NCBI GenBank assembly: GCA_039586795.1
Contig: JBDHJS010000020.1
Span: forward strand, 1 to 57,833
From: Gemmatimonadota bacterium
GTDB taxonomy: Bacteria > Gemmatimonadota > Gemmatimonadetes > Palauibacterales > KS3-K002
Direction of reading: 5' to 3'
DNA: 57,833 nt
Both the position numbers and the translations under genes were made by a program. Below, piece by piece: positions 5,663 through 23,321 of the stretch. The notes below the pieces were generated by a model. That model was not told the origin of the DNA, did not search any database, and saw nothing but the letters and a program-made list of their open reading frames with translations. The number at the start of each line of letters is the position of its first letter. Within the stretch, counting starts at the first letter, position 1.

Positions 5663-5665
5663 TCG

Positions 5666-7834
5666 TTACTCCGATTGCAGGCGGCAGTGGCGGATCACCA
5701 TGGCGAGTAGCGCAGCGTGCTCGATGAGCGAGCTGCCTATGATGTACTCCCGTTCCGTGCGCTCGTCGCCACCGATCGGTCCCGCCCCATCGATCTTGGG
5801 GACTTCATCGGGAGCGAAACAGAGGTCGGACGAGTGCCACCGGTGACCGGCCAAAACGGGCACGTTCAGCCTTCTGGCGATCGCGGCGATCTCGTCGTAG
5901 AAGCCCTGATTGGCAGCGTTGCTTACTAGTGGCGGGCGACGCAGGCCGCCGGACACGTGGAAGCGCACGCCGCTCCGGGAGCGCTGTCGCCCGACGGTCC
6001 TGATACGATCCAGCAGCGCCGCGCCATCTTCGGGTCGGTTGAACCTCACGGTCACTGTCGCTTCGGCCGACTCGGGCAAGCGACCAAATGGAGCATCGAC
6101 GCCGATTCGTCTCACGCTGACATGAATCCCCGCTTCGGGATCCGAGAGCTTCTGCAACGCGCTGAGGCGACGGAACAGGTGTCCGATCACTTGTTCCGCT
6201 GCAGCCTCAAACTTGCCCTTACCGTAAACGGCCTCCAGATGGAACGTGGCGCGCCCGGCCCGCGAGATGATGAGCTCGCCATGTTCACCCGCGGCTTTGA
6301 GGCCGACTACGTGGCGAGCACGTTTGGTGTGCTGTTCGACTATCGACCGTCCGTTGACTCCGTTTAGCGTGTCATCGCTCGTGAGCAGCAACCCGCAGCG
6401 GACGGAGGGTAGGGCCCGGGCGAAGCGCAGCGCACGCAGGGCGGCGAGCGCCACGGCGATGCCGCCCTTGTTTTCGGCGATCCCGCTGCCGAGCAGTCTG
6501 TTTCCCTGTCTGTTGAACGGCACGAAGGCGCGCTCGGGAATGGCCGAGTCCAGGTGCCCCAGCAGCAGGATGTCGTCCTCTTCCTCTTCGTGATTGGAGA
6601 AGTAGAGCACATTACCCACCTGTACCTGGGGATAGACGCTCACCACAAAGCCGATCTGTCGGAGTTGCGCAGCAAGCCACTCGCCGAATGCGTTCACGCG
6701 CTCCGCATCTCGGGCGGGCGTGCGCATGTTGACCATTTTCTCCAGCGTAGATTCGATGGTCTCCGCCTGACTGCGAAGGTAGGTGCGTATTCTGGCGGAG
6801 AGCTTTTCCGGCTTAGTTTGAGTCGCCCGCTTCGCGGACGCTTCTGTGAGATATTCCTGACCAAAATAGCGTACCGCGGCGACATCGAGGATACGATTGA
6901 TGAGATCGTCGTAGCTGTATCCAGCGACCTTCGCCGCGTGCACAAACGATCCCGTGGGACCGAGGCTGGCCATCGAGTTGATCTCAAGGATGTACGGGTT
7001 GTCTGCCTCGTCCAGGCGGATGTCCACGCGGGCAAAGTCGAATAGCTGCAGGGAGCCGAAAGCTCGTTTCACCAGCGCCTGCAGGTCAGCCGTCAGCTCT
7101 GGCGTGAGTGGGGCGGGGCAGATCTTCCCGCGCGGTTCCTCGAGCTTGTCTTGAGCGCTCTGAATTGCAGTCGGGTCACCGTCCAGGTCGATCTCGACGA
7201 CAGGGAATACCTCCGGATCCTGATTACCAAGCAATCCTATGGCCAGCTCACGCCCGCGGATGAACTCTTCGACGAGAACGTGTTGCTGGAATTCGCCTAT
7301 GAGTTCCGCGACCGCTTCCCGGAGGTCCGCCTCGATATGCACGACTCGGATTCCATACGATACCGCCTCCATCTTCGGCTTCACGATGACCGGAAAGGTC
7401 AGATCCCCAAACTCGTCTTCGGGAGTGGCGAAGTTCCAGAAGCGTGGCGTAGGGAGACCAGCATCGCGAAAGACGATCTTGGCTATGACCTTGTCCAGCG
7501 CCAGGCCGTGGGCCATCGGGTTCGAGCCGACATAGGGCAACCCCAGCATCTCGAGCATCGACGGAAGATGCGTATAGCGACTTACCCCCTGGATTCCGTA
7601 TGCCATGTTGAAGACCATGCCCGGGCGCTCGCCTTCGATGACCTGAGGCATGAAATCACGAAGCTGATCCACGACGTGCATGTTACCGTCGATGATACGA
7701 ACGGCATGACCGCCCTTCTCGAGCGCCGACGCTACGCGCTCTACCGTGCGCGGGTTGTACGTTTCCCGGTTCTGGGGTCCGAAGACGTTGATGACGCCGG
7801 TCCGGTCGGTGTTGTGAACGACGGCTACTTTCAT
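5666..7834 (-). CDS. D-Ala-D-Ala-ligase-like ATP-grasp domain fused to an M20 (carboxypeptidase G2-like) domain
   Basis: N-terminal LDKV.AK, PVIVKP, VEEFI.GRE, ARVDIR and LEIN; C-terminal LLGHLD, G.GIAENKGG and dimerisation region. Confidence 0.85.
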   Translation of the reverse strand: MKVAVVHNTDRTGVINVFGPQNRETYNPRTVERVASALEKGGHAVRIIDGNMHVVDQLRDFMPQVIEGERPGMVFNMAYGIQGVSRYTHLPSMLEMLGLPYVGSNPMAHGLALDKVIAKIVFRDAGLPTPRFWNFATPEDEFGDLTFPVIVKPKMEAVSYGIRVVHIEADLREAVAELIGEFQQHVLVEEFIRGRELAIGLLGNQDPEVFPVVEIDLDGDPTAIQSAQDKLEEPRGKICPAPLTPELTADLQALVKRAFGSLQLFDFARVDIRLDEADNPYILEINSMASLGPTGSFVHAAKVAGYSYDDLINRILDVAAVRYFGQEYLTEASAKRATQTKPEKLSARIRTYLRSQAETIESTLEKMVNMRTPARDAERVNAFGEWLAAQLRQIGFVVSVYPQVQVGNVLYFSNHEEEEDDILLLGHLDSAIPERAFVPFNRQGNRLLGSGIAENKGGIAVALAALRALRFARALPSVRCGLLLTSDDTLNGVNGRSIVEQHTKRARHVVGLKAAGEHGELIISRAGRATFHLEAVYGKGKFEAAAEQVIGHLFRRLSALQKLSDPEAGIHVSVRRIGVDAPFGRLPESAEATVTVRFNRPEDGAALLDRIRTVGRQRSRSGVRFHVSGGLRRPPLVSNAANQGFYDEIAAIARRLNVPVLAGHRWHSSDLCFAPDEVPKIDGAGPIGGDERTEREYIIGSSLIEHAALLAMVIRHCRLQSE

Positions 7835-8021: not shown

Positions 8022-10115
8022 TCACACGGCCATCGTTCGTGCGTACTCGGCTCCGACTATCCCCTGTCGGCAGGTATCGGAGTTCAGGAAGTCGGCGGCG
8101 AGCTTAGCCGAAACCTCCAACGCCGCGGAGAGGGGCAGGGCACCGGCCTGGTTCAGGCAGTCAATGATGGCGCCGCGGGCCGTTTCCATCTCCGGTGAGC
8201 CCGCGGGTGGAAGGTCGCCGAAGTCGGTGGGTATCCCCTTCAGCGCGCCTTCCTCGACGGGCCTCTGCTTTAGCCCGTGGTCACCATCGCTGGCCACCTT
8301 CCAGGCCATCGCCAGGGCCTGATCCATCGGTCCGGCGTAGTCGACCAACCAACCTTGGGCGTCGGTGGCCCGGATCGGTTGTCCGGTGAGCAGCAGGTGC
8401 AGCAACTTGGGCCAGTGGTCGGGGTCAGCTTTGCGCAGCGGCCAGTGGCAGCCCTCCATGCCGGGAACCACCGGCAGCGTCACTTCGGGCCAACCGAGCT
8501 GGGCATCATCCACCGTCACCAGGTAGTGACAGTGCATCAGCGCCTCGAGCATGCCGCCCAGGCAGCGCTTACCGTTCACGAAGCCGACGGAGACCTTGAA
8601 CTCGTCGTTGAAGCGGCGTGCCGTCGAGGACCAGCCGTGGGTGATCTTGTAGCCGTCCTCGAAGTTCTCCAGCGCCGAGAAGAAGTCGCTGGTGTCGGCG
8701 CCGATCATCTGGGTAGCGATGTGGAAGTCGCCCGTGACGATCACCCGATCGATGGCCTCGGCCTTAAGCCAGTCGATGGCCCGGTTGAGCTCGTGATCGA
8801 CGTCCCAGTTGTAGCTTTCACGATTAATCGTGATCAGGCCGACCTCGCCGTTGTGCTCGGCGTTGACGTACAACTGCTGCCAGTCGGCGCTCTCCATTCC
8901 GTCGAAGGCATCCGGGAACCAGCTCTTACCCTTCTTCGCTTGCGGGTGCAGCTGGTGATAGGCCTCGACGGTGCCGATCACCTTGTCGGGGCCCAGGTCG
9001 CGGACGACCGCCAGGATGCCGCGCCGGAACTGGGCGCACAGCTCCCCGATGGCGTTCAAATGCGAGAAGTGGCCGCGGTTCTCGTGGAGCATGAGGCTGG
9101 TCATCTGGAACATCGGTCCGAGGATCCAGCTCGCGAATTCCTCCTCCGCTCCGTCCTTCAGCGCCCAGTCGACCAGCGGCCGGAAGTGGTTGGGCGGATA
9201 CCAGGTTTGACCGGTTTCCTTCCGCTCCTCCAGCACAGCGGTGGGTTGGAAAAGCTCGCCGTAGGTCCCGGCCAGGTGGTGCAGGCAGGACCAGGTCAGG
9301 AAGTCGGCGCCCTTCGCCCCGATGGCGTCGTGGGCCCGGAACGGGTTAGGTCCCAGCAGCTTGCGGGTGAACTTGTCGATCTTCCAGAACGGCATGTTAC
9401 TGGCGTCGTGATAGCGCAGACCGGCCAGCGTCACGCCGCAGAACAGCACGTCGAGGATGAACGACCAGTTGTCGCTCACTGGTAGCGGGATCAGGCCCAT
9501 CGACCAGAACATCTGGGTGATGGCGGACGGCTCGGGCTCGACGATCTCCCACACCTTGTTTATCTCGTGGGGGAACGCCGGGTGAGCGATGCCGACGCCC
9601 AACTCGGAGGCGGGGAAGCCGGAGGTGACGGACCGGATCTCGATTCCCGGTACGGCCTCGCGGAACATCTTGTAGTGCGCCCGCTTGATCTCGAGAATCT
9701 CGGGGATCGCCTCCAACAAGAAGCGCGGGTTGAGGGCGCTCAGTTCATCTGGAAGACGCTTGCCGTCGTAACTCATGCGGGTGATGTTGGCCATGATTCG
9801 GTCGGCGCCCTCGCGTCCGAACGCGTCAACCAGGCCCGGGTACTTGGCACCGATACCGTCGGGCGCGCTGGGGAAGTCCAACCCCACGACCCGCACGCCG
9901 AAGGGCTGCAGCCGTGAGCCGAGCTGCATCGCCTTGCCGGCCCCGACGATTCCGTTGGCTCCGGAAATAACCAGCGAGCCCCGCTGTCCCGAATTCCCGA
10001 ACACTTGATCGACCAGGTCGCCGGTATCGGCGGGGGTCCGTCCGTTCTGAAATATGTCGATGACATTCCCCAGGCCCATCGTCTGGAGTGTCGGTTCTCT
10101 CATTGCCTTGGACAT
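8022..10115 (-). CDS. Bifunctional 3-hydroxyacyl-CoA dehydrogenase (N-terminal) / enoyl-CoA hydratase (C-terminal)
   Basis: Rossmann SGANGIVG and EAIPE.L.IK; C-terminal crotonase motif NGKRCLGGMLE...LGWPEV.L...PG with both Glu; ATG at 10115 after GGGAGA. Confidence 0.8.
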   Translation of the reverse strand: MSKAMREPTLQTMGLGNVIDIFQNGRTPADTGDLVDQVFGNSGQRGSLVISGANGIVGAGKAMQLGSRLQPFGVRVVGLDFPSAPDGIGAKYPGLVDAFGREGADRIMANITRMSYDGKRLPDELSALNPRFLLEAIPEILEIKRAHYKMFREAVPGIEIRSVTSGFPASELGVGIAHPAFPHEINKVWEIVEPEPSAITQMFWSMGLIPLPVSDNWSFILDVLFCGVTLAGLRYHDASNMPFWKIDKFTRKLLGPNPFRAHDAIGAKGADFLTWSCLHHLAGTYGELFQPTAVLEERKETGQTWYPPNHFRPLVDWALKDGAEEEFASWILGPMFQMTSLMLHENRGHFSHLNAIGELCAQFRRGILAVVRDLGPDKVIGTVEAYHQLHPQAKKGKSWFPDAFDGMESADWQQLYVNAEHNGEVGLITINRESYNWDVDHELNRAIDWLKAEAIDRVIVTGDFHIATQMIGADTSDFFSALENFEDGYKITHGWSSTARRFNDEFKVSVGFVNGKRCLGGMLEALMHCHYLVTVDDAQLGWPEVTLPVVPGMEGCHWPLRKADPDHWPKLLHLLLTGQPIRATDAQGWLVDYAGPMDQALAMAWKVASDGDHGLKQRPVEEGALKGIPTDFGDLPPAGSPEMETARGAIIDCLNQAGALPLSAALEVSAKLAADFLNSDTCRQGIVGAEYARTMAV

Positions 10116-10129
10116 GTTTCTATATCTCC

Positions 10130-11326
10130 CTACGAGACCTTGAACACAGCCGCTATACCGACATCGCCTGCGGCACAACCAAAGATCAGAACGTGACCAC
10201 CGCCCAGATCGACTGCTTCCTCGAGAGCCTCTATGATCACTCGAGTGAGCGTCGGGCCCTGGGGGTGCCCCCAGACCATCGAGCAGCCGGTGTTGTTCAT
10301 CTTGCGCCAGTCGTAGCCGGTAATCTTGGAGAAGATGACGTCGTTTACGGCAAAGGGATTGTGGTTTTTAACCACGGCCATGTCGTCCATGGTCAGCCCG
10401 GTCCTGTCCAGCAGTTTCTGTACGGCGAATGCCGGCGCTTCCGGCATCAGGCTGGGTTGGGTCCGGGCCTCCACCTTAGCGACGAACTGAATGTCGATCT
10501 CGGGTCGAGAGCTGAGCTCCTTCGCCTTCTCCTTGGTCGTCACGAGTAGGGTCGACATGCCGTCGGAGGCGTGGGTCTGGCCGCCACCGGTAACACACGT
10601 ATCGAGCTCGCGCATCGCGCGGAGCCCGGCCCGCGTTACCATGCGCACACCAAAGTCGTCATCGATGCGGCCCAGCGGGCGGCCCGCCACGTTCAGCACA
10701 TCAAGAGGCACGAGGACGCGTTCCAGGAATCCCGACTCCTTGGCATCGAAGTACTGGTCGTAGCGCAGGAAGGCCACTTCGTCCGTCTCCTCGCGATCGC
10801 AATTGTACTTGCGAGCCGTGATGCCGGCGGCCGTGATCATGGCGTTACCCGTCGCCGGGTCGAAGCCGAAGTTGTCCCACACGTCGGCGATCGCCTGAGT
10901 GCGCTCGTGGGCCCGGCGCTCTGGGAAGACGCCTACGGGCGAGTCGCTGGTTCGGTCGAACGTGAGCACGCCGACGGTGTCGAAGGCGCCCGACTGGACC
11001 TCGGCGCCGGCCAGCAGCACCGCCTGGAGGCCGGTGGCGCAGGCCTGCTCGACGTGGTAGCCCGGGATCCGGTGTCCCATACAGCTGGCGACCAACGGCG
11101 CGTTCCAGAACTTCCAGTGCCAGGGTATCGTGGATCCGATAACCAGGTAGTCCAGCTCGCTCTTGGGTACTTTTCTGAGCCCCAGTATCTGGGCCATCGA
11201 CTCGCCGGCGAACTGGCCGATGTTGACCTCCGCCAGGGCGGACGTCTGCCAGGCCGGGAAATAGCTGCTTCCCCAGGTTCCATAAGGGATTCTGGCGTCA
11301 GGGAGCATCTGGCGTGCCTTTGTCAT
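10130..11326 (-). CDS. Thiolase family acyl-CoA acetyltransferase
   Basis: QACATG, SDG, GHPQG and GCAAG motifs; NEAF is replaced by HNPF. Confidence 0.9.
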   Translation of the reverse strand: MTKARQMLPDARIPYGTWGSSYFPAWQTSALAEVNIGQFAGESMAQILGLRKVPKSELDYLVIGSTIPWHWKFWNAPLVASCMGHRIPGYHVEQACATGLQAVLLAGAEVQSGAFDTVGVLTFDRTSDSPVGVFPERRAHERTQAIADVWDNFGFDPATGNAMITAAGITARKYNCDREETDEVAFLRYDQYFDAKESGFLERVLVPLDVLNVAGRPLGRIDDDFGVRMVTRAGLRAMRELDTCVTGGGQTHASDGMSTLLVTTKEKAKELSSRPEIDIQFVAKVEARTQPSLMPEAPAFAVQKLLDRTGLTMDDMAVVKNHNPFAVNDVIFSKITGYDWRKMNNTGCSMVWGHPQGPTLTRVIIEALEEAVDLGGGHVLIFGCAAGDVGIAAVFKVS

Positions 11327-11389
11327 AGGGTATCCCCCCTCAAATAGCTGATGGCTATCTGGTGAGTTGTCGTGCAGTGGTGGGGCAGG

Positions 11390-13621
11390 TTATCGCCCTA
11401 TTTTAGCACCACAGAACCTAGTTAACAAACGCAGGGCGCGGTCAGCGGTTCTGAAGGTCGGGATCCCGTGCTCCTCCAGGAGCCGGGCCATGGGGTCGTA
11501 CAGGGGGCCGCCGTCTACTGCCACCACCCAGGGCTTGTCTACTTGATCCTTCAGCCTGACAAGCCGCATAGCGACGGAGTTCTCGGCGTAAATGTCCTCG
11601 GCGTGGCTATCACCGGGGGCAAGGGTCTGTAGGGCGCCGGTGAGAGGGACGCAAGCGACAAGGGCCACGTCGACGTTGTCGTCCTCGAGGACGAGGCGCA
11701 CCGCCTTCTCGAACGGGGCGTCAGGCATGATCGGCGTGATATCCACCGGATTGCGAACATCGATCACTTCGTCGAGCCGAGCCTCTTTCAGCAGAGCACG
11801 AAGACCGGTTTTCGTAGGCTCTGTGAACTCCGTCAATCGCAAGTCGGTGAGGTGATCGGAGATCGAGACGCACTCGAAGCCGGCGTTGGAGATGGCGCCC
11901 AGCCGTGAGCCATTGACCGTCTTCGATCCGAGAAACGCGAACAGCTTGACCATGTCCTCGAAATCGTCCGTGGTGTCGCAGACAATGACGCCCGCCGACT
12001 CGGCCAGCTGGCGGGTGACGGCGTAGTCGCCGGCGATGGAGGCCGTGTGGCTGGCGGAAGCGCTCTGGCCTTCAGCCGTACGGCCAGCACGGTAGAGAAC
12101 GATGGTCTTGCCACGCTTGGATATTTCCCGCGCCGCGCTCAGGAAGCGCGCCCCATCCAGCGGTTGAAACCCCTCGACGTAGATGGCGAATATCTCGAGC
12201 TTCGGGTCATCCTTCAGATACGCCAGGTAGTCCCCGATGGTCAGGTCGGTTTGGTTGCCGACGGAGATGGCGTAACGGGGCGCCAGCCCGACCTTACCGC
12301 CTTTCGCTCCGTAAAAAGCCCCGCTCTGCGAGATGTAGGCGATGGGCGCCAGCGGCGCTTCGGGCATCGGTAGCTTTCGCTCCGGCAAAAACGTTGTGTC
12401 GTAACGGCCGGGCACCGATCGAACGCCCATGGAGTTCGCGCCGACCAGCAGCGGGCCACGCCAGTCACTGTCCCTAGCCTTGGCCAGAGCGTGGTGCAGC
12501 TTCTCCACGATCGCTGTGGACCCTTCTGTCTCACCTATGCCACCGGGAATGAGAACAACGTTCTCGGCCAGTTGCTTCTCTAATATGACGGCGAGCATCT
12601 CGGGGACTTGTCCGGCGGCGACGGCGAGCACGAGTTTGTCGACCTTTTCGGGCAGCGACTCCAAATCGGGATAGCATGCGCACCCTTCGATCGTGTCCGA
12701 GCCCGGCTTCACGACGTAGACGCGCTCGCGCTCGAACCCGGCACGCAGCGTGTTGATCAGACTTACGCGACCCGGGTTCATTCGCTCCGACACGCCAACA
12801 AACGCGATTGACTTGGGTTCGAACAGGTTCTTTAGCTTGCGAACAGGGCGGCTAGCCGGCTTCGCGGCTGTGGCCAGCGCGCACCTAGCGAGCACGTCGA
12901 GAGGTACGAGCCGCCCCTCGGAGATGACGAACGGGTTCACCTCGAACTCGCTAAGAACGTCTGGCATCGTCTCCCGCGCCAACGCGCCGAACTTCAGGAG
13001 GGTCTCGATGATCTGGTGCATCGCGATCCGCTCGTCCTGCCCACGTAGCTCTCCGGTTAGCAGCTTGGTAACTGCGACCCCGCGGATCAACGCCTCAGCG
13101 CTCGCCGGACTCAGGTCCTCTGCCGACGCAATGGCCACATCCCGGCTGGCCCTGAAGTTCTCAGCCAGGAATTCCGTGTAGACCCCACCCGCGCCGTAGG
13201 TGACGACAGGGCCGAAATCGTCCGTCCATCGAGCACTCATCAACAATTCGCCGCCGAGCGACGGGTCGTATTCAACGCACTCGACCAACAGGTATCCGCG
13301 CACATCCCGGCCGTCGAACGCCTCCTCCATAGACTGGATCGTCTGTTTGACGCTGTTGACCTCTTTTGCCGCGAAGACGACGCCACCCTCGTCGCTCTTG
13401 TGAAGCACCTCGGGCGATACGACTTTGACGACGACTTCAAAGCCCGGAAGCGCCCGCAGGTCGCCCTCGCCCAACTGCGCCGCGTCACGTACGAAGACGC
13501 ACTCCGGCACCGCGATGCCAATGGCACGGAGTAGCTCTAATCCCTCTGTTTCTAGAAGATTGTCCCGCCCGTCGGACCGGGCAGCCTCAACGATCTTGGC
13601 AGGGCTCCTACCGCTCACCAC
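11390..13621 (-). CDS. ADP-forming acetate/acyl-CoA synthetase (ATP-grasp beta domain fused N-terminally to the alpha domain)
   Basis: HKSDEGGV, FGPVV, FEVNP, GANSMG, SQSGA, SVGN, phospho-His SHTAS, SNAG and NPVD motifs. Confidence 0.9.
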   Translation of the reverse strand: MVSGRSPAKIVEAARSDGRDNLLETEGLELLRAIGIAVPECVFVRDAAQLGEGDLRALPGFEVVVKVVSPEVLHKSDEGGVVFAAKEVNSVKQTIQSMEEAFDGRDVRGYLLVECVEYDPSLGGELLMSARWTDDFGPVVTYGAGGVYTEFLAENFRASRDVAIASAEDLSPASAEALIRGVAVTKLLTGELRGQDERIAMHQIIETLLKFGALARETMPDVLSEFEVNPFVISEGRLVPLDVLARCALATAAKPASRPVRKLKNLFEPKSIAFVGVSERMNPGRVSLINTLRAGFERERVYVVKPGSDTIEGCACYPDLESLPEKVDKLVLAVAAGQVPEMLAVILEKQLAENVVLIPGGIGETEGSTAIVEKLHHALAKARDSDWRGPLLVGANSMGVRSVPGRYDTTFLPERKLPMPEAPLAPIAYISQSGAFYGAKGGKVGLAPRYAISVGNQTDLTIGDYLAYLKDDPKLEIFAIYVEGFQPLDGARFLSAAREISKRGKTIVLYRAGRTAEGQSASASHTASIAGDYAVTRQLAESAGVIVCDTTDDFEDMVKLFAFLGSKTVNGSRLGAISNAGFECVSISDHLTDLRLTEFTEPTKTGLRALLKEARLDEVIDVRNPVDITPIMPDAPFEKAVRLVLEDDNVDVALVACVPLTGALQTLAPGDSHAEDIYAENSVAMRLVRLKDQVDKPWVVAVDGGPLYDPMARLLEEHGIPTFRTADRALRLLTRFCGAKIGR

Positions 13622-13649
13622 TCACCACCTACCACCCACCACCTACCTC
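13615..13649. repeat. Degenerate heptamer tandem repeat (CTCACCA/CCTACCA) at the citF stop codon
   Basis: ctcacca ctcacca cctacca cccacca cctacct. Confidence 0.75.
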
Positions 13650-15232
13650 ACCCTCCACACCGTATCAATCACCGTCCCATCCACCCACTTGATCACCGCC
13701 ACCGGCTCGTCGGTCAAAGCTGCCTTCGCCGGCGGCCCACCCACCATCTTCTCCACCTCTTCCTTGATCTCCTCGATGGGCCGAATCGGCAAGTTCGATC
13801 CCTTCACGGCATCAAGCAAATCCGTGCGTCGCGGATTGATCGCCAATCCGCGTTCGGTGGCGATCACGTCGATCAGCTCGCCGGGCCCAGTCACGGTGGT
13901 GACCTCGTCGAGGAGCACGGGGATGCGGTCGCGGAACGACGGGACGGCGAGGATCGTGCAGCCGGAGGACAGGCAGTTCTGCCAGCCGCCGATGCCGTGG
14001 AGCAGCACGCCGTCGGAGTGGGTGTTGACGTTGGCGTTGAAGTTGACATCGACTTCTGTGGCGCCGAGAACCACGGCGTCGACCATCGATGCGAAGTTGC
14101 CCTTGCCGTGGTAGTTGTAGGAGGTGAAGGGCGACGTCGCGATGTGGCGCGGGTCGGAGGCGATGGACTCGACGGCGGCCAGGTCGAATGTCTGGCCGTC
14201 GAGGATGTAGTCGGTGTAGCCCTCGTTCAGCAGGTCGACCAGGTACTGGGTCGAGCCGCCGCGGACGAAGCGCGCTTTAACTCCGGCCTCCTTCATCATC
14301 TCCTTCAAGAAACCGACGAAGGCCAGGGCGATACCGCCGGCGCCGGCCTGGAACGAGAAGCCGTCCTTCATGATCCCGGCTTCTTTGAGGAAGCGGGCCA
14401 CGTACTCGGCGATGAGCAGGCGGTCAGGACTCTTTGTGATCTGCGTAGTGCCGGAGACGATCTTCGACGGGTCGCCGATGGAATCGACCTCGACGACGCA
14501 GTCGACGTTATTGCCCTGGATCTGCCACGGGATGCAAGGGAAGGGGACCAGGTTATCGGTGACGACGATAACGTGATCGGCGTAGATCGAGTCGGCCAGC
14601 GCGAAGCCGAGAGATCCGCAGGCCGACGGTCCGTGGGACCCGTCGGAGTTGCCGAACGGGTCGGCGGTGGGCGCGGCGATCACGGCGATGTCGATGTGGA
14701 CCTCGCCGTCCTGGATCGCTTGCCAGCGGCCGCCGTGGGAGCGGAGAACGCCCATGCCGCGCATCTTCCCCTCGGAGCAATAGCGGCCCAGCGGGCCGTT
14801 CATGCTGCCTTCGATATGATGGACGACGCCTTGGTCCATCAGGTCGATCACCGGGGCGTGGCAGGGGAAGGAGGCGCTGGGCAGCCACATGAGGTCTTTG
14901 GCGCCCAGTTCAGCGGCGGCGTTGAGGGCCAACAGGGCGACCTCGTCGCCGTTCCTCAAGTGATGGTGGGTCGAGATCGTCATGCCGTCCTTGAGACCGC
15001 ACTTTTGGAGCGCCGTCTTGAGGTCGGCTACGCGCTTGTCGCCGCTGTCGGGATAGTCCTTTACGGATCGGATGGGCGGAGCCGCTTTGGTGCCTTGCGG
15101 CTGGTACGCGCCTGGTCCCTGGAAGGGGGCTTGTTCCTTGCCGTTGACGATCGTTGGGACGCGGCGGCCTAGAGAATTCTTGACGAGTTCCATGTTCTTC
15201 AAATCATCAATCATCAGTCGCTCAATGCTCAA
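13643..15232 (-). CDS. citF: Citrate lyase alpha subunit-like CoA/ACP transferase (true start may be a downstream ATG)
   Basis: GLKDGMTIS.HHH.R.GD, RSHGGR, ACGSLG, FSFQ.GAGG, LGATEVD..FN.NV.T and GIGG motifs. Confidence 0.92.
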   Translation of the reverse strand: MSIERLMIDDLKNMELVKNSLGRRVPTIVNGKEQAPFQGPGAYQPQGTKAAPPIRSVKDYPDSGDKRVADLKTALQKCGLKDGMTISTHHHLRNGDEVALLALNAAAELGAKDLMWLPSASFPCHAPVIDLMDQGVVHHIEGSMNGPLGRYCSEGKMRGMGVLRSHGGRWQAIQDGEVHIDIAVIAAPTADPFGNSDGSHGPSACGSLGFALADSIYADHVIVVTDNLVPFPCIPWQIQGNNVDCVVEVDSIGDPSKIVSGTTQITKSPDRLLIAEYVARFLKEAGIMKDGFSFQAGAGGIALAFVGFLKEMMKEAGVKARFVRGGSTQYLVDLLNEGYTDYILDGQTFDLAAVESIASDPRHIATSPFTSYNYHGKGNFASMVDAVVLGATEVDVNFNANVNTHSDGVLLHGIGGWQNCLSSGCTILAVPSFRDRIPVLLDEVTTVTGPGELIDVIATERGLAINPRRTDLLDAVKGSNLPIRPIEEIKEEVEKMVGGPPAKAALTDEPVAVIKWVDGTVIDTVWRVR

Positions 15233-16443
15233 TCGCTCAGCAGATTCATGCGGCGCGCGTTGTCTACGAGGCGTTGTGCGCGGAGGACGACGGGTGGGTC
15301 GATCATCTTGGTGCCGAGTCGCACCACGCCAAGGCCTTTTGCCTGTGCTTCATCGAAGGCGGCGACGATCTTTTGTGCCTTTTCGATTTCGTCGGCCGAT
15401 GGCGCGAAGGCTTCGTGAATTGGTTCGATCTGGCGCGGGTGGATGCAGCCCATTCCTTCGAAGCCGAGAGCGCGAGAACGAGCTGCCCATTCCCGGAGTC
15501 CTTCGACGTTGCCCACCTCGCCGTAGACGGAGTCGATGGCCTGAACGCCGGCGGCGCGGGCTGCGTTGACGAGGCGCTGACGGGCGAACAGCGACTCGCT
15601 GCCTTCCTGTGTTTTGCGGACGCCCATGTCGGCCGTGTAGTCCTCCAGACCGATGGTCAGCGCGACGATGGATTCGGCGGCGCTGGCTATGGCGAAGGCG
15701 TTTTCGATGCCAAGAGCCGATTCGAGGATCGGCATCAGCCAGATCGGGTGTCCGTCACCGGCCTTGGCCCGGACGCCGCGGATCCGCTCTTCCACCTCGG
15801 CGACCTGCTCGGCGTGTTCGACCTTGGGGATCAGGATCAGGTCCGGTCCTTCGGGAACGACGGCCTTCAGGTCTTCGAAGCCAAGAGGCAACTGATTGAT
15901 GCGGACCATGCGCTCGGCGCCCATGAAGTCGACGCAGCGTAGCGCGTTCCGCACGATCAATCGAGCCGTGTCCTTCTCGTCCGGGTGGACCGAGTCCTCC
16001 AGATCGAGAATCACCCCGTCCGGGTGATGCAGCCCGGCGTTGACGAACAGCTTGGGTTGATTGCCAGGTAGATAGAGTCGCGACCGCCGGAGACGATCGA
16101 CGGCGGTGGGTCCGTCGCGGGTAACGAGACGGTCCGGGCGCGCGTCGCCTTTCCGCTTAGCGCCGGCCCGGAGAGCCGCGGCCTCGACCCGAGCGGCGAT
16201 GGTGAAGGGAAGGCCGCCGCCGTCATCGATCTCGACCCGAGCGTTCTTCACGCCCAGCGCGCCGAGCACGCCTTGGGTCGCTTCGCGGATCGAGTCGCCG
16301 TACATCGCGCCGACCTTGGAGCGGACGTCGAGCTCCACGCCGCCAGAGTCCGCGAGCTCGACGGCAACGTGGAGATCGGAACGAACGTCGTCGCCGACCG
16401 GGCCCGCTTCACCGCGGCCGGCTTTCGCGGCCTTCCCGCCCAT
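15229..16443 (-). CDS. citE: Fusion of citrate lyase ACP (CitD/gamma) and citryl-CoA lyase (CitE/beta)
   Basis: N-terminal S.V..MYG.SI...DDGG.L...I.AR.EAA (CitD-like); C-terminal RRSRLYLPGN, LDLEDSV, VRIN, ILIPKVE, ILES, GLEDYTAD, IHPRQI and MIDPP. Confidence 0.9.
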   Translation of the reverse strand: MGGKAAKAGRGEAGPVGDDVRSDLHVAVELADSGGVELDVRSKVGAMYGDSIREATQGVLGALGVKNARVEIDDGGGLPFTIAARVEAAALRAGAKRKGDARPDRLVTRDGPTAVDRLRRSRLYLPGNQPKLFVNAGLHHPDGVILDLEDSVHPDEKDTARLIVRNALRCVDFMGAERMVRINQLPLGFEDLKAVVPEGPDLILIPKVEHAEQVAEVEERIRGVRAKAGDGHPIWLMPILESALGIENAFAIASAAESIVALTIGLEDYTADMGVRKTQEGSESLFARQRLVNAARAAGVQAIDSVYGEVGNVEGLREWAARSRALGFEGMGCIHPRQIEPIHEAFAPSADEIEKAQKIVAAFDEAQAKGLGVVRLGTKMIDPPVVLRAQRLVDNARRMNLLSD

Positions 16444-16454
16444 GCTTTCCCTCC

Positions 16455-17642
16455 TCAGCCCAGGTGGGCGATGATCGCGTCGGTCACCTGGTTGGTGGTG
16501 GCGGCGCCCTGGGCGATCGACTTCGGTCCGCCAGGGATCTTCAGCATGTCGTAGGTGCGGACCTTACCCTCGACGACGACCGCCGCGATCGCACCGCGCA
16601 TCGCCTCCGCCTTATCCGTTTCGCCGATGTGGTCGAGCATCATGGCGGCGCTGAGAACCATGGCGATGGGATTCACGATCGACGGATCGAGGGTTTCGTA
16701 TTTGGGCGCCGAGCCGTGGGTCGGCTCGAACACCGCGACCTCGTCGCCGATGTTGGCGGAGCAGGCAAACCCGAGGCCGCCGACCAGGCCGGCGAACGCG
16801 TCGGAGACGATATCGCCGAACATGTTACCGGCGACGATCACCGAGTAATCCTCGGGGTTCTTGGTCAGCCACATCATCTGGGCGTCGATGTTGGTGGACC
16901 AATGTTCGATGCCGGGGTAATCCGGTTTGACCTCTCGAGCTACCTCTTCCAGCATGCCCGATGTCTCGCGGAGCACGTTCGGCTTCTCGCATATCGTCAC
17001 CGACTTATAGCCGTGCTTCTTCGCGTACTCGAACGCCGCGGTGACGATGCGGCGGCAGGCGTTGCGGGTGAACACGCGGGTCGAGATCGCCATCTCCGGG
17101 CTAGGCACATGGGCGAAGCCCTTGAACTTGGGGTGCGTCGCCAACGCGTCCCGCACCTGGTCCGGCGGGTTCGTCCACTCGAGCCCGGCGTACAGACCCT
17201 CGGTGTTCTGTCGGAAGATCACCGCATCAACCTTTGGCTCCTCGTAGCCGCCGCCCGCCTTTTGGCGGATGAAGTTCAGCGGGTTGCCCGGGAAGGAGCG
17301 GCAGGGCCGAATGCAGACGTCTAGGTTGAATCGCTGGCGCAGCCCGACGATGGGGCTGTAGTAGACGAGTCCCTTGTCCTGAAGTTCGGGCTTCAGCTCC
17401 TTGGCCGCTTCGTTCTTAGGCTTCGAGGTGATCGCCCCGAACAGCCCCAACTTGTGCTCCTGCAAGAGCTCGATCGTTTTCTCGGGGAGCGGATTGCCGT
17501 CATTGATCCAGCAATCCCACCCGATATCCGCGTGCACGTAGTCGGCCTCGAACCCTACCGCGTCGAGGACCCTGATCGCCTCAGGCAATACGGTCTTTCC
17601 TATGCCGTCGCCCGGCATGCTCACTACTGTGTTCTTAGCCAT
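16455..17642 (-). CDS. Beta-decarboxylating dehydrogenase, isocitrate/homoisocitrate type
   Basis: PGDGIG, YSPIVGLR, RQNTEGLY, KPNVL, NMFGDIVSD and EPTHGSAP; ATG at 17642 after AGGAG. Confidence 0.9.
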   Translation of the reverse strand: MAKNTVVSMPGDGIGKTVLPEAIRVLDAVGFEADYVHADIGWDCWINDGNPLPEKTIELLQEHKLGLFGAITSKPKNEAAKELKPELQDKGLVYYSPIVGLRQRFNLDVCIRPCRSFPGNPLNFIRQKAGGGYEEPKVDAVIFRQNTEGLYAGLEWTNPPDQVRDALATHPKFKGFAHVPSPEMAISTRVFTRNACRRIVTAAFEYAKKHGYKSVTICEKPNVLRETSGMLEEVAREVKPDYPGIEHWSTNIDAQMMWLTKNPEDYSVIVAGNMFGDIVSDAFAGLVGGLGFACSANIGDEVAVFEPTHGSAPKYETLDPSIVNPIAMVLSAAMMLDHIGETDKAEAMRGAIAAVVVEGKVRTYDMLKIPGGPKSIAQGAATTNQVTDAIIAHLG

Positions 17643-17694
17643 GATCTCCTTACGTCTGCCTATTTGTTTTAGTTGTACGCTGCCAATTCTAACT

Positions 17695-19635
17695 TCATAG
17701 TCCAAGCTTGGTTTTCACCAGGTTCTCAACGCCGCCCGCCACGACCAACGATTGAGGAACCGAGCCCAGCGCCGGGAAGTTGTACAGCGCTTCACCGTGC
17801 CGCACAGTGCCGCTCTTGAAGTCGACCTCAAGGGTATCCCCTGGGATCAGCGTCAGCTCGCCGGCCTTTATCTCTTTCGTGTGCACATCGTAGAGTCGTT
17901 CAACGAGAGCTGGACATTCGATGCAAACGAAACCGTTGTTGAAGGCGTTGCGCAGGTACGTTTGCGAGAAGCTGCCGGCGATCACAAGCGGGATGCCCGC
18001 CGCCTGTAGCGATGTGGCCGCCTGCTCTCGACTGGAGCCGGTGCCGAAGTTGTAGCCGCCGACCAGCACATCGCCGGGGCCTGTCCGCTCGACGAAGGCC
18101 GGGTCGTAGTTCTCCATCACGACCTTCGCCATCTCGTCCCGGGTCAGGTCGCGATAGGTGTAGTCCTTACCGTAGATCCCGTCGGTGTTCAGGTTGTCCT
18201 GCGGCAGAAAGACGAGACGTCCCTCGATGCGATCGGGGAATCCGGCGAGGATCTCCACCTCGTCGTCCGCGTCGACCGGTTGGCCGACTCGTTCGAACGC
18301 GTAGGCAGGCGCCTGCCCATCCGACGGTTCGGGGCCAGTGATGTACCCGGCGACGGCGGAAGCGGCGACGACCTGCGGGCTGGCCAGGTAGGCCTGAGCA
18401 TCCCGTGAGCCCATGCGACCCTTGAAGTTCCGATTGGTGGCGGAGATGCCGACCTCACCCGGTTCCAGCAACCCTGTGCCGAGACCGATGCAGGGCCCGC
18501 AACCGGGCGGCAATGGGACGGCGCCGGCATCGAGCAGGGCGCCCCAGGCGCCAGTGTGCTCGGCCTCGCCCTGGATCTCGGCGCTGGCCGCGGCGACGTA
18601 CATGTCGACGCCATCGGCGATCTGCTTGCCGCGGAGCACGGCGGCGGCCGCCTCGATGTCCTCCAGCCGGCTGTTCACGCAGCTGACTAGGTATGCCTTT
18701 TGGATGGCGATCTTGTCGGTCTCGATGTCGGCCAGCGAGCGCATGACCTGCACGCTGTCCGGTCCCGAGACGTGGGGACTCACGGCGCCGAGGTCGATCT
18801 CGATGCGCGCCGCGTAACCCGCGTCTTCATCGGCGGCGATGGGATCGGCGGCCCAGCTCTCGAGATCGGCGTCGCTGTAACGCTCGACGCCCTTCGCCGC
18901 GAGAAGTGCCTTTCGCTTCTTCAGATACTGGAGGGTCGTGGCGTCGGCGGGGAACCAGCCGACGAGAGCGCCCCACTCGGTGGTCATGTTGGAGATCGCC
19001 ATGCGCTCGTCCATGCTGAGCGCCGCGACGCCGGGCCCAGTGAACTCGACCGCTGCGTTCAGTACCTCCCCCTGATTGTACAGACCGCAGAGCGTGACGA
19101 TCACGTCCTTGCCGGTGGCGCCGTCGCGCAGCTCGCCGGTCATCACGACCTGAACCGTGCGCGGGATCTGCCACCAGAACTCGCCGGTCGCCCAGATGGC
19201 CGCCGCGTCGGTACGGACCACCGGCGTGCCCAGGGCGCCCAGGGCGCCATACATATTAGAGTGAGAGTCGGAGCCGACGACGAGGGAGCCCGGGACCACG
19301 TAACCCTGCGAGACCATGATCTGGTGGCTGATCCCGGTGCCCGCGGGATAGAAGTCGACGCCCTGATCCTTGGCAAACGCCTCGATGTCGGCGTACTTGG
19401 CCAGATTGCTCTCCGACGTGTTCTGGATGTCGTGATCGAGAGCGTAGACCGGCTGCTTGGGGTTCTTGATGCGAGAAGCACCGATCGCCCGGAATTTCTG
19501 CATCACCGCGGCCGTGTTATCGTGGGTCATGATGTGCCGAGGCCTGAGCGATATGACGTCACCGGTACGTAGCGCCCGTTTCGGCCCCTCCGCCATGTGT
19601 CGTTGCGCGATCTTCTCTACAACTGTCTGACCCAT
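17695..19635 (-). CDS. lysF: Single-chain homoaconitase-like [4Fe-4S] hydro-lyase (large and small domains fused)
   Basis: MTHDN, GSDSHSNMYG, SCVNSR, GCGPCIGLG, ISATNRNFKGRMG, NTDGIY and NFGTGSSREQA; resembles fungal Lys4/LysF architecture. Confidence 0.85.
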   Translation of the reverse strand: MGQTVVEKIAQRHMAEGPKRALRTGDVISLRPRHIMTHDNTAAVMQKFRAIGASRIKNPKQPVYALDHDIQNTSESNLAKYADIEAFAKDQGVDFYPAGTGISHQIMVSQGYVVPGSLVVGSDSHSNMYGALGALGTPVVRTDAAAIWATGEFWWQIPRTVQVVMTGELRDGATGKDVIVTLCGLYNQGEVLNAAVEFTGPGVAALSMDERMAISNMTTEWGALVGWFPADATTLQYLKKRKALLAAKGVERYSDADLESWAADPIAADEDAGYAARIEIDLGAVSPHVSGPDSVQVMRSLADIETDKIAIQKAYLVSCVNSRLEDIEAAAAVLRGKQIADGVDMYVAAASAEIQGEAEHTGAWGALLDAGAVPLPPGCGPCIGLGTGLLEPGEVGISATNRNFKGRMGSRDAQAYLASPQVVAASAVAGYITGPEPSDGQAPAYAFERVGQPVDADDEVEILAGFPDRIEGRLVFLPQDNLNTDGIYGKDYTYRDLTRDEMAKVVMENYDPAFVERTGPGDVLVGGYNFGTGSSREQAATSLQAAGIPLVIAGSFSQTYLRNAFNNGFVCIECPALVERLYDVHTKEIKAGELTLIPGDTLEVDFKSGTVRHGEALYNFPALGSVPQSLVVAGGVENLVKTKLGL

Positions 19636-19667
19636 CGTCCTGCCGACTCCTCTCAAGGCGAACAGCT

Positions 19668-19712
19668 ACCGTTTACCGTCAACCGTCTACCGTCTACCGT
19701 CTACTATCTACC
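19668..19712. repeat. ACCGTCT heptamer tandem array
   Basis: accgttt accgtca accgtct accgtct accgtct actatct acc. Confidence 0.85.
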
Positions 19713-21088
19713 TACTGGTCCGCTCGGCACATCTCCATCAAATCCGTGATCGACTCGATCTCCTCCAGATTCCACACCGCGTCCTTCAGCCGCTCACGAC
19801 CCGCTTCCGAGAGAACCGGCGCAGCTAGAGCGTCGAACTTCTCCTCCACCTCCTGGTCGGTCAGCGGATTGCGCGGATCACCCTTCGGGTAGTCGAGTTG
19901 CTCGTTGAACTCGCGGCCGTCGGTGGTCGTGATCGTCACGCTGACGCGCTGCAACTTCGGGAAGACGGCCTCGATCTCGGGATCGGCGACGACTTCGACC
20001 TTGTTCAGCTGGGCGCGGATCGTCGGATCCATGATCTTGTCCATCTCGAACTGGGCCGGCGTGACCTGGCGTTCCGCCACGGCAGCGGCGATCACATAGG
20101 GCAGGCTGTGGTCCGCGGTCTCCTTGCTCCGCGGATCGTACTTCGTGGGATCGGCCAGGATGTCCGCCGCCCGCGCCAGCGAGCGGATATGCACCTTCTC
20201 CACATCGTCGGCCGCCAGGTCGTTCTCCTGTACGATCTTCAGTACGGCGGAGATCGGAGCGTGGGTCAGCGCCTCGGTGGGGAAGGCCTTCATGCCGCAG
20301 CGCTCGATGCGCCAGGATTCGCCCAACCCGTCGGTGAGGATGTTCAGCTTCCACTCCGGTCCCATGCAGTGGACCAGGCCTTCCTTGCCATCGATCACGT
20401 GCTCGGGCCCGCTGTAACCCTTCTCGGCCAGCAGCGCGCCCATCACGCCTGCCTCGGTAGCCATGGGATCGACGGTGTTCTTCATCATTGTCAGCTTACC
20501 GGCCGTCACCGCGCCCAGCGAGCAATGATGCGACGCCGAGATGCCAATGGCGTGCTGGATCTTGTCCCACGGTAAGTGAAGCATCCGCCCCGCCACCATG
20601 GGCGAAACGAATGCGGTGAGCGTGGCGTGGTGCCAGCCTCGCTCGCGAATGCCGGGGAAGGCCGCCTCGCAAAGGCGCATCTCGAACTCGTGACCCAACA
20701 CGATACCGACGACCAGCTCTTTACCATCGCTACCGTGCCGTTCGCCGCAGGCTATCGCTGCCGGGATGATGTCCGACGGATGCGACGGATCTTGCTGCCA
20801 ATAGATGTCGTTGTAGTCCATCACGCGCACCATCAACGCGTTGGCAAGCGCCGCCGAGACCACATCGACCTTGGAACCGCTGCCCAGGATCGTTGCCGGC
20901 CCTGCACCCGCTACCTCATCGAGCACCTCCAACGCGATGAGCGCATCTTCCTGCCGATACCCTCCAAACGCACAGCCCAACGAGTCCAGCAGATAACGCT
21001 TCGCTTCATGAACCGCCTGCTCACCGATGTCGCCGAATTTGAGATCAGCCGCCCACCGGCTCATCGCCGCCGTAATCGTCTCCGACAT
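19712..21088 (-). CDS. prpD: MmgE/PrpD family (2-methylcitrate dehydratase-like) protein
   Basis: LDSLGC, DYNDIY, SHPSD, RGWHH, KETADHSLPY and PKGDPRNPL motifs. Confidence 0.88.
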   Translation of the reverse strand: MSETITAAMSRWAADLKFGDIGEQAVHEAKRYLLDSLGCAFGGYRQEDALIALEVLDEVAGAGPATILGSGSKVDVVSAALANALMVRVMDYNDIYWQQDPSHPSDIIPAAIACGERHGSDGKELVVGIVLGHEFEMRLCEAAFPGIRERGWHHATLTAFVSPMVAGRMLHLPWDKIQHAIGISASHHCSLGAVTAGKLTMMKNTVDPMATEAGVMGALLAEKGYSGPEHVIDGKEGLVHCMGPEWKLNILTDGLGESWRIERCGMKAFPTEALTHAPISAVLKIVQENDLAADDVEKVHIRSLARAADILADPTKYDPRSKETADHSLPYVIAAAVAERQVTPAQFEMDKIMDPTIRAQLNKVEVVADPEIEAVFPKLQRVSVTITTTDGREFNEQLDYPKGDPRNPLTDQEVEEKFDALAAPVLSEAGRERLKDAVWNLEEIESITDLMEMCRADQ

Positions 21089-21130
21089 GTCTTCTCTCCC
21101 TATGCCATTAAGAACGGCGCTTCGTTAGTC

Positions 21131-21153
21131 ACCGTCTACCGTCCACCGTCTAC
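21131..21153. repeat. ACCGTCT heptamer array at the HD-gene stop codon
   Basis: accgtct accgtcc accgtct ac. Confidence 0.7.
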
Positions 21154-21686
21154 AGGTTCTTGAACGGCAAATACGTCATAAAATCAGCGTGATGCACGAT
21201 ATAGGCCTCGGTGCTTCGCTTCACGAGATCTCCCTCCGCCGCGTGCGCCGCTATTATATGACACACCTCGTCGGGCACACCGCACTCCATGGCGATGGAG
21301 ACGCCGGTGAACGGGTGCCTGAGCGCCTTGCCCCGATCGCTCTGTACCGCTTTCCCGTCGACCTGCTCGTATTCCAGCAGCTTGCCCACGTCGGCGAGTA
21401 TCGCGCCAGCGATCACCGTGTCCTTGTCTATCTTCAGCGCCCGGCCCAGGAACTCCTGCATCGATTCCGCCGACTTCCGGGCGACATGGACCACGCACCG
21501 CTTGTGCTCCATGAACGTCGCCGGGCAGTTGGGCACCAGCAGGGTGAACGGAATCTCGTTCAGGTCCTGCGGGTCGAGGGGGCTGCGCTCGAAGGCGAGG
21601 ACCCAAGTCTGGGTCACCTGCTCCCGCAGCTCGGGGTTGTCTATCCACTCTAGCTCCGGCCAGAGCTCTTCCACCGCTTTCCGCAT
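21150..21686 (-). CDS. HD/HDIG-fold protein with the HD motif changed to AD
   Basis: EH...V, AGAILADVGKLLEY, LRHP..G, HII.AH and IVHHAD. Confidence 0.8.
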   Translation of the reverse strand: MRKAVEELWPELEWIDNPELREQVTQTWVLAFERSPLDPQDLNEIPFTLLVPNCPATFMEHKRCVVHVARKSAESMQEFLGRALKIDKDTVIAGAILADVGKLLEYEQVDGKAVQSDRGKALRHPFTGVSIAMECGVPDEVCHIIAAHAAEGDLVKRSTEAYIVHHADFMTYLPFKNL

Positions 21687-22826: not shown

Positions 22827-23321
22827 GTGCACATCGATTTCTATGAGAGGATCTGGATGTGGGCTGCGGCGGGGATCGTCGTGATCTTCCTGGCGTCCAT
22901 GGGCTTCACGTTCTTCGGGCGAGCGATTCAGCCGCCGAGTCATGTGGAGATGATCGATCCGACGACGGTACGATCCGACGAGGAGTTCGGCAGCCCCGGA
23001 GTAACGATCAACGCCGACGGCAGCGCGACGGTTGTGGTTCAGGCGTTCATGTTCGCGTTTCTGCCGAATGAGATTCGCGTGCCGCGTGGCCGACCGGTGA
23101 CGTTCCGGATGACCAGCGCCGATGTGATCCACGGATTCCAGATCGTGGGCACGAACGGCAACACGATGGTGGTGCCGGGCTACGTCAGTCAGTTCACGAC
23201 TGAGTTCAGCCGGGCGGGTGAGTACCTGATCGTCTGCAACGAGTATTGCGGACTGGGTCATCACGTGATGTCGGCGAAGCTGATCGTGGAGGACGGAGCC
23301 GGGATGGGAGGTGCGAGATGA
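22827..23321 (+). CDS. cbaB: ba3-type (B-family) cytochrome c oxidase subunit II
   Basis: Single TM helix; CuA ligands DVIHG and CNEYCGLGHHVM. Confidence 0.95.
   Translation: MHIDFYERIWMWAAAGIVVIFLASMGFTFFGRAIQPPSHVEMIDPTTVRSDEEFGSPGVTINADGSATVVVQAFMFAFLPNEIRVPRGRPVTFRMTSADVIHGFQIVGTNGNTMVVPGYVSQFTTEFSRAGEYLIVCNEYCGLGHHVMSAKLIVEDGAGMGGAR

Follow-up and report, generated by a model that had tools for sequence, protein, structure and literature searches.

The upper alpha-aminoadipate pathway of fungi and Thermus runs through homocitrate synthase, an aconitase together with Lys4/LysF, and the homoisocitrate dehydrogenase Lys12. Its isomerisation is divided over two enzymes, and the available text of PMC3556520 assigns to the fungal homoaconitases only the interconversion of homoaconitate and homoisocitrate. 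Aconitases dehydrate the oxaloacetate- or oxoacid-derived arm of their substrates, and PrpD-type chemistry is needed for the acyl-derived arm, as set out in the accessible part of PMC5690661. CitD, CitE and CitF are known, together with CitC, CitG and CitX, from the citrate (pro-3S)-lyase of E. coli and Klebsiella. A CitD-CitE fusion with CitF (IALB_1146/1147) was also described in Ignavibacterium album, where it was interpreted as a citrate lyase of fermentation or of an unusual reverse tricarboxylic acid (TCA) cycle (PMC3362086). In the accessible part of that account complete lysine synthesis was not found in I. album, and the aconitase-family, dehydrogenase and HD neighbours and the missing activation genes are unmentioned. 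Relatives of these enzymes are encoded together in a cluster of nine genes in a DNA stretch of 57,833 nucleotides, hereafter the window, from a Gemmatimonadota bacterium (GenBank assembly GCA_039586795.1, contig JBDHJS010000020.1, positions 1 to 57,833). An earlier note, made from the sequence alone, had read the nine genes as one CoA-dependent (homo)citrate cleavage pathway.

The nine open reading frames (ORFs) occupy the minus strand from 21686 down to 8022; the spacers between them measure 61, 76, 52, 11, -4, 21, 63 and 14 bases. The description of co-directional genes with short spacers (-4 to 76 bases) was confirmed from these ORF coordinates. In this order the genes encode an HD-fold protein, a MmgE/PrpD-family protein, a homoaconitase, a dehydrogenase, a CitD-CitE fusion (CitDE), CitF, an ADP-forming acyl-CoA synthetase, a thiolase and a protein with an enoyl-CoA hydratase (ECH) domain. 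Protein families were assigned with Pfam and NCBIfam profiles, whose own cut-offs are used throughout, and the family labels given in the note were largely upheld. Kinship to fungal and Thermus enzymes rests on profiles and printed alignments. As had been claimed, no (homo)citrate or methylcitrate synthase, PrpB or lysine-pathway gene was found among the 39 ORFs scanned in the window. The first six genes form a real, widespread and uncharacterised module built from known enzyme families. No paper describing the pathway came up in a literature search, which did not extend to supplements and most subscription journals. The reading given slight preference here is that the module would run the upper aminoadipate pathway in reverse, as a catabolic route from 2-oxoadipate to 2-oxoglutarate and acetate.

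A six-gene module conserved across phyla

The dehydrogenase, used as query, retrieved at least 585 relatives in genome contigs, and 80 loci, many of them truncated by contig ends, were retained for neighbour counts. They belong to Gemmatimonadota, Ignavibacteria, Bacteroidales, Acidobacteriota, Chloroflexota, Planctomycetota and others. L-numbers denote loci, G-numbers genomes and C-numbers contigs of the source genome, G000, which is 97.8% complete. Beside the dehydrogenase an aconitase-family gene was observed in 64/80 loci, the HD gene in 58/80, CitDE in 45/80, CitF in 42/80 and PrpD in 36/80. All six genes occurred together in 26/80 loci, in several gene orders and phyla. The check for conserved synteny of prpD, lysF, the dehydrogenase, citDE and citF thus showed an arrangement kept across many phyla. 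The conserved unit is six genes (HD, MmgE/PrpD-family protein, homoaconitase, dehydrogenase, CitDE and CitF) and not the nine that had been taken as one unit. Close homologues of the synthetase, the thiolase and the ECH protein adjoin the core in 1/80 genome loci (L001). When the thiolase was used as query, 438 relatives were found in metagenomes, and the core module was present in 5/80 of the loci examined, many of which are short and for which thresholds were set by the analysts. A close synthetase homologue directly follows CitF in the same numbers, 1/80 genome loci and five metagenome loci.

In an even sample of 121 genomes of the phylum, the homoaconitase profile TIGR00139 scored above cut-off in nine, and CitF was found in eight, all within those nine. 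Together with the variant carrier G009 these gave the ten carriers of the phylum test. Five Bacteroidales genomes without a CitF next to the module have CitDE-CitF at another place, with the same RSD motif in all of them (5/5).

Variants of the module were found to differ by exchange of parts. A HacA/HacB-like pair takes the place of LysF in some of them, and the two share no locus among the 80; PrpD and a second, 600-residue aconitase-like gene likewise share none (0/80). In L047, L058 and L062 ATP-citrate-lyase-like genes stand in for CitDE-CitF; in G020 and G009 its place is taken by genes of the SucC-like, SucD-like and citryl-CoA lyase kinds. Some of the swapped-in ATP-citrate-lyase-like or citryl-CoA lyase-like genes score above cut-off. 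The HD gene is present in every variant type. Common to the variants are one dehydrogenase, one CoA-linked cleavage unit and the HD protein, usually along with two isomerising enzymes. Exceptions are L012, L014 and L025, which have no PrpD, and nine loci, mostly of Bacteroidales, with only the second aconitase and HD. L001, L058, L062, L070, L117 and L128 have genes for 2-oxoacid:ferredoxin oxidoreductases next to the module. These lie upstream in L058 and L062, with an acyl-CoA synthetase downstream; in L001, L117 and L128 oxidoreductase genes come after all nine, and none is found at that place in the window.

Some loci hold further genes. A CstA-family transporter, a candidate importer, lies between the dehydrogenase and HD genes in six Ignavibacteria/Bacteroidetes loci (L059, L061, L066, L068, L069 and L076). 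A gene for an NAD(P) transhydrogenase beta subunit was seen upstream of HD in 2/80 loci (L025:3973-5762 and L046:1754-3444), and genes for an archaeal-type HMG-CoA synthase and a thiolase downstream of CitF in several Gemmatimonadota (L011, L035, L099 and L103).

Enzymes of the module and their predicted substrates

The dehydrogenase (395 residues, 16455..17642, minus strand like all nine genes) matched the Iso_dh profile and resembles homoisocitrate dehydrogenase (HICDH). Its YSPIVGLR segment aligns with YSSPIVALR of the HICDH of S. pombe. Across 79 rows the Y-x-S-P-I-V loop does not vary (V in 78), and the Asn present in E. coli isocitrate dehydrogenase (IDH) and in the source genome's IDH-like paralogue is missing from it. 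After HGSAP, K314-Y315 is present in 79/79 rows, an NADP-type motif as in E. coli NADP-IDH; the HICDH of T. thermophilus has D-I. The best NCBIfam match was to the methanogen AksF enzymes (275 bits, cut-off 540). No curated HICDH profile passed, and no fungal HICDH profile was among the matches. A private insertion is located ahead of the substrate loop.

The source genome also has a Si-citrate synthase above cut-off, an IDH-like gene with an S-I-N-V motif, a C-terminal piece of AcnA located at the end of a contig, and another partial aconitase-family gene. With these separate genes the genome has no need of the module for its TCA cycle. The 2-oxoadipate/homocitrate series, which the note had named as one example, is probably the one handled by the module, as supported by the homoaconitase score, the HICDH loop and the separate TCA genes. 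Its other example, a plain reversed TCA arm, is disfavoured by the two isomerising enzymes, the missing isocitrate Asn and the genome's own TCA genes. The module shares its reaction logic with the reductive TCA arm, which consists of IDH, aconitase and either ATP-citrate lyase or citryl-CoA synthetase with a lyase, as well as the cleavage enzyme families of some variants and, in a few loci, the flanking 2-oxoacid:ferredoxin oxidoreductases. It differs in being apparently one methylene longer, in its two isomerising enzymes and in the separate TCA set alongside.

The single-chain, fungal-type homoaconitase (LysF/Lys4-like, 646 residues, 17695..19635) scored 741 bits with TIGR00139 (cut-off 529.9) and has three cluster cysteines, C319, C379 and C382. 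The MmgE/PrpD-family protein (458 residues, 19712..21088) is composed of an N-terminal PF03972 and a C-terminal PF19305 domain. The label PrpD holds for the family, but the protein is nearer to IDS epimerase (131 bits) and Bacillus IRG1 (122 bits) than to true PrpD (at most 63 bits), and its scores with the PrpD equivalogs were far below the cut-offs (97 against 950 and 84 against 575 bits). CitE, ATP-citrate lyase and Ccl are Si-face enzymes, so that from 2-oxoglutarate they would form (S)-homocitrate. The acetyl arm of this isomer would be out of reach for an ordinary aconitase, which would explain why the module includes a PrpD-family protein, predicted here to be an (S)-homocitrate/cis-homoaconitate dehydratase. 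Its true activity could also be that of an epimerase or isomerase. The idea that PrpD and homoaconitase complement each other as dehydratase and hydratase was supported: two half-reaction enzymes are kept, and the alternatives to them are mutually exclusive in the 80 loci.

The fungal-type single-chain homoaconitase, the HICDH-type loop and the divided isomerisation are features of the upper alpha-aminoadipate pathway. In contrast to that pathway, the module has no synthase, includes a CoA transferase/lyase and a PrpD-family protein, and has an NADP-type instead of an NAD-type motif; most carriers are without LysX and have lysine-degrading genes. A MmgE/PrpD-family protein beside an aconitase-family enzyme, and the interchange of PrpD with an aconitase-family protein, recall the 2-methylcitrate cycle of PrpC, PrpD or AcnD/PrpF, Acn and PrpB, from which the module differs by its low PrpD profile scores. 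This cycle was considered and rejected, as PrpB and PrpC are not in the module and the chemistry of the dehydrogenase is unsuitable. A dehydrogenase is unable to oxidise the tertiary alcohol of 2-methylisocitrate.

In the CitD-CitE fusion (404 residues, 15229..16443) CitD scored 57.5 with TIGR01608 (cut-off 63.5) and CitE 271 with TIGR01588 (cut-off 443), on one chain. The CitF-like CoA transferase (about 520 residues, 13643..15232) matched PF04223 and scored 493 bits with TIGR01584 (cut-off 501). CitE and CitF are each 39% identical to the E. coli proteins and differ from them at many near-invariant positions. In the column of E. coli CitD Ser14, which we take to be the attachment site of the phosphoribosyl-dephospho-CoA group, Arg was found in 43/45 rows. 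CitG was found in 0/58 distinct carrier genomes (59 handles, G111 and G129 being the same genome) and in 8/21 non-carriers. Neither CitC, CitG nor CitX was found in the source genome, the only genome in which CitC and CitX were searched. Arg at the Ser14 column and the absence of CitG from 58 carriers suggest that the lyase, a predicted (homo)citryl-CoA lyase, is likely to use free CoA. The note's CoA-dependent lyase is thereby supported, CitC, CitG and CitX being absent from a nearly complete genome. Compared with citrate (pro-3S)-lyase, the homologous subunits are thus partly fused, carry Arg at Ser14 and occur without CitG, and they are linked to isomerase and dehydrogenase genes. Related subunits of malonate decarboxylase accept free malonyl-CoA, according to the available part of PMC5534430. 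In the eight non-carriers with CitG-family genes (G013, G019, G025, G026 and G028-G031) these adjoin RimK/LysX-like genes and are probably unrelated to citrate lyase.

The sixth core gene encodes the HD-fold protein (178 residues, 21150..21686), which matched the HDIG domain TIGR00277 with 36 bits (cut-off 27.6). Residues H61, D99, H124, H148, H165 and D168 are invariant in 59 rows, and the position of the HD-motif His is occupied by Ala in 32, Ile in 14, His in 11 and Cys in two. The AlphaFold model had a pLDDT of 94, and its best structural match in Foldseek was YhaM (E 3e-5). Homologue search, Atlas, AlphaFold and Foldseek gave an HD/YhaM-like fold and no function; a role as lactonase or repair enzyme is speculation.

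Direction of the pathway and rival explanations

The note had held that substrate and direction cannot be read from the sequence. Neither is provable in this way, but genome comparison constrains both. In the reverse aminoadipate route the dehydrogenase would convert 2-oxoadipate, CO2 and NADPH to homoisocitrate, LysF would convert this to cis-homoaconitate, and the PrpD-family protein would hydrate cis-homoaconitate to (S)-homocitrate, the isomer required by a Si-face lyase. CitF would transfer CoA from acetyl-CoA onto homocitrate, freeing acetate, and CitE would split homocitryl-CoA into acetyl-CoA and 2-oxoglutarate. Lysine would be the main supply of 2-oxoadipate, via lysine 6-aminotransferase (LAT) and piperideine-6-carboxylate dehydrogenase (P6CDH), and glutaryl-CoA is a possible further supply in the source genome. 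Stoichiometrically, lysine, 2-oxoglutarate and CO2 would yield two glutamate and acetate with electrons balanced, so that a ketogenic substrate would give a C5 skeleton without oxygen. Use of NADPH, as suggested by the K-Y motif, would favour carboxylation.

Catabolic direction is suggested by co-occurrence with genes of lysine degradation. Among the 121 phylum genomes, P6CDH was present in 10/10 carriers (one as a fragment at a contig end) and 16/111 others, and LAT in 7/10 carriers (one split over two contig ends) and 6/111 others. Within family f3, P6CDH was found in 4/4 carriers and 5/52 others. P6CDH directly follows PrpD in L005, and in G020 P6CDH and a class III aminotransferase are divergent from the module. 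Outside this sample, 37 of 49 other locus genomes have P6CDH or LAT above cut-off. The source genome has LAT, P6CDH and LysA, the only gene of the diaminopimelate route that was checked; LysX was not found in it. HglS (PF07063), an alternative sink, was found in 0/121 phylum genomes. Oah, of the benzoyl-CoA genes discussed below, is present in 6/10 carriers and 6/111 others.

Several points weigh against this reading. Although the Fisher values for the co-occurrence of P6CDH and of LAT are <1e-5, the genomes compared are relatives and not independent. Neither LAT nor P6CDH was found above cut-off in 12/49 locus genomes of unknown completeness, including all five Bacteroidales. The enrichment of Oah fits either a glutaryl-CoA link or a shared anaerobic lifestyle, and such a lifestyle may account for part of the co-occurrence. 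A probable glutaryl-CoA dehydrogenase, below cut-off, offers the source genome a simpler sink. Reductive carboxylation is uphill and needs pull from the cleavage. In CitD the column after the Arg holds Ser in 42/45 rows, and the PrpD-family protein is, judged by its profile scores, not a true PrpD orthologue. Finally, forward use of the enzymes is plausible in some genomes.

Such forward use would convert acetate or acetyl-CoA and 2-oxoglutarate through homocitrate to 2-oxoadipate, as a CoA-saving substitute for homocitrate synthase in the making of lysine or as an oxidative route to glutaryl-CoA. As a general explanation it is rather unlikely, even though HICDH and homoaconitase are known to act in the sense of oxidative decarboxylation and 2-oxoacid:ferredoxin oxidoreductases flank the module in the six loci named above. 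LysX scored above cut-off in 8/58 carriers (1/9 phylum carriers tested, G009 left out) and 2/21 non-carriers. The eight have a lysW/lysX operon, and neither homoaconitase nor HICDH was found in the eight lysW stretches fetched, which makes forward use plausible in some genomes and also supports a homo-series substrate; in G148 and G149 the other family members resemble LeuB and IDH only. Yet 50/58 carriers are without LysX above cut-off, the source genome has LysA, and 5/8 lysW stretches hold a homocitrate-synthase-like gene of their own (331-355 bits in the three tested, cut-off 414). The module associates with the degradative LAT and P6CDH, and ATP-dependent synthetase/lyase variants usually cleave. 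The module may instead shorten or lengthen another 2-oxoacid, for instance by converting 2-oxopimelate to 2-oxoadipate or by acting on a broad homo(n)-citrate series. AksF, the best NCBIfam match of the dehydrogenase though well below its cut-off, acts on several chain lengths, and the private insertion and the divergence of CitF and CitE from E. coli would fit. This is quite unlikely in view of a substrate loop close to that of the fungal enzyme and a co-occurrence with lysine catabolism that indicates 2-oxoadipate.

A plain citrate arm, with CitDEF serving to ferment citrate or to run a reverse TCA cycle of unconventional kind, would correspond to the citrate role proposed for CitDE and CitF of I. 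album in the accessible text of PMC3362086. CitF lies almost at the citrate lyase cut-off, and its swap partners resemble ATP-citrate lyase and citryl-CoA lyase, some above cut-off. One aconitase would be enough for citrate, yet two different enzymes are retained, and with the isocitrate-binding Asn absent and the source genome having its own TCA genes the citrate arm is improbable. Very improbable is the reading of all nine genes as one pathway of C4 acyl-CoA turnover with substrate-level ATP. Short spacers throughout and the same order in L001 and five metagenome loci speak for it, but the arrangement is limited to close relatives, the thiolase pair (thiolase and ECH protein) is mostly found elsewhere, beside benzoyl-CoA genes in 19/80 loci, and the thiolase query was unmatched in 2/4 other carrier genomes.

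Genes outside the core and meaning of the module

The ADP-forming acyl-CoA synthetase (743 residues, 11390..13621), identified by ligase domain profiles, is an add-on and not part of the core. The same holds for the thiolase (398 residues, 10130..11326) and its partner, a protein of 697 residues (8022..10115) in which ECH_1 was matched at residues of about 440-630 with E 6e-5, below cut-off. Of the label HAD-ECH given before, the weak C-terminal ECH domain stood; the HAD domain was backed by no profile, and the N-terminal part is tentatively HAD-like. The ECH protein was present in 67/80 thiolase loci, and homologues of benzoyl-CoA reductase (bcr), Dch, Had or Oah in the 19/80 already mentioned. 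The pair probably belongs to the lower benzoyl-CoA pathway, with a thiolase likely of the 3-oxopimeloyl-CoA type, as suggested by the neighbours alone. The lower benzoyl-CoA pathway yields glutaryl-CoA and acetyl-CoA. The coupling to C4 acyl-CoA turnover claimed in the note was therefore not upheld; the position of the pair beside benzoyl-CoA genes indicates glutaryl-CoA instead. In the source genome bcr, dch, oah and had lie on C7, without a close thiolase of the cluster's kind.

A larger role of the reverse aminoadipate route may tentatively be considered, as a one-carbon-longer counterpart of the reverse TCA arm. With the flanking oxidoreductase, two CO2 would be added to glutaryl-CoA derived from benzoate or lysine, and 2-oxoglutarate would be formed along with acetate or acetyl-CoA, by way of an NADPH-driven HICDH and a citrate lyase free of the prosthetic group. 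The nine-gene cluster would join this arm to its glutaryl-CoA supply.

The anaerobic aromatic degradation cluster on C7 (C7:415-10566, L212) has bcr subunits of about 32% identity to class I queries and also encodes Dch, Oah, Had, an SDR protein, a thiolase with a DUF35-like partner and a TetR-like protein. Oah was found in 12/121 phylum genomes. The one LeuA/homocitrate-synthase-family protein of the source genome, at C67:8343-9581 (L210), scored 198 bits with LeuA (cut-off 517), below all cut-offs, and its gene adjoins indolepyruvate-type oxidoreductase genes. Homologues 83-88% identical to it are located near the thiolase pair and an isopropylmalate dehydrogenase-like gene (L175, L191 and L226); the protein is possibly an elongation enzyme of aromatic 2-oxoacids.

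Elsewhere in the window, a pair of genes at 4022-7834 on the minus strand encodes a protein of 722 residues that combines an ATP-grasp ligase with an M20 peptidase-like domain and, three bases further on, a gamma-glutamyltransferase; the pair is not kept beside the module. Cytochrome oxidase subunits II and I (22827-24940, plus strand) are divergent from the cluster, and a protein of 1122 residues that joins a protein kinase to long WD40 repeats is encoded at 51702-55070 on the minus strand. A promoter and terminator scan gave hits at chance level (5 against 3.6 and 15 against 10.9). Four marine-sediment runs contained short pieces of relatives over most genes and no evidence on expression.

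If the reverse aminoadipate reading is true, the module would represent a new route of central catabolism that includes a carboxylation and is found in at least 585 database loci and many uncultured phyla. It would allow 2-oxoglutarate to be reached from lysine or glutaryl-CoA independently of oxygen, show that a citrate lyase can work without its prosthetic group, and add an (S)-homocitrate branch. It would also correct the annotations 'citrate lyase' and 'homoaconitase', which are used to assign reverse TCA or lysine synthesis to metagenome-assembled genomes. The six module enzymes are all soluble and open to direct assay, and Ignavibacteria, some of them cultured, carry the module. Were the larger scheme from glutaryl-CoA true, the module would be part of a widespread CO2-consuming electron sink and an anaplerotic route in sediment heterotrophs.

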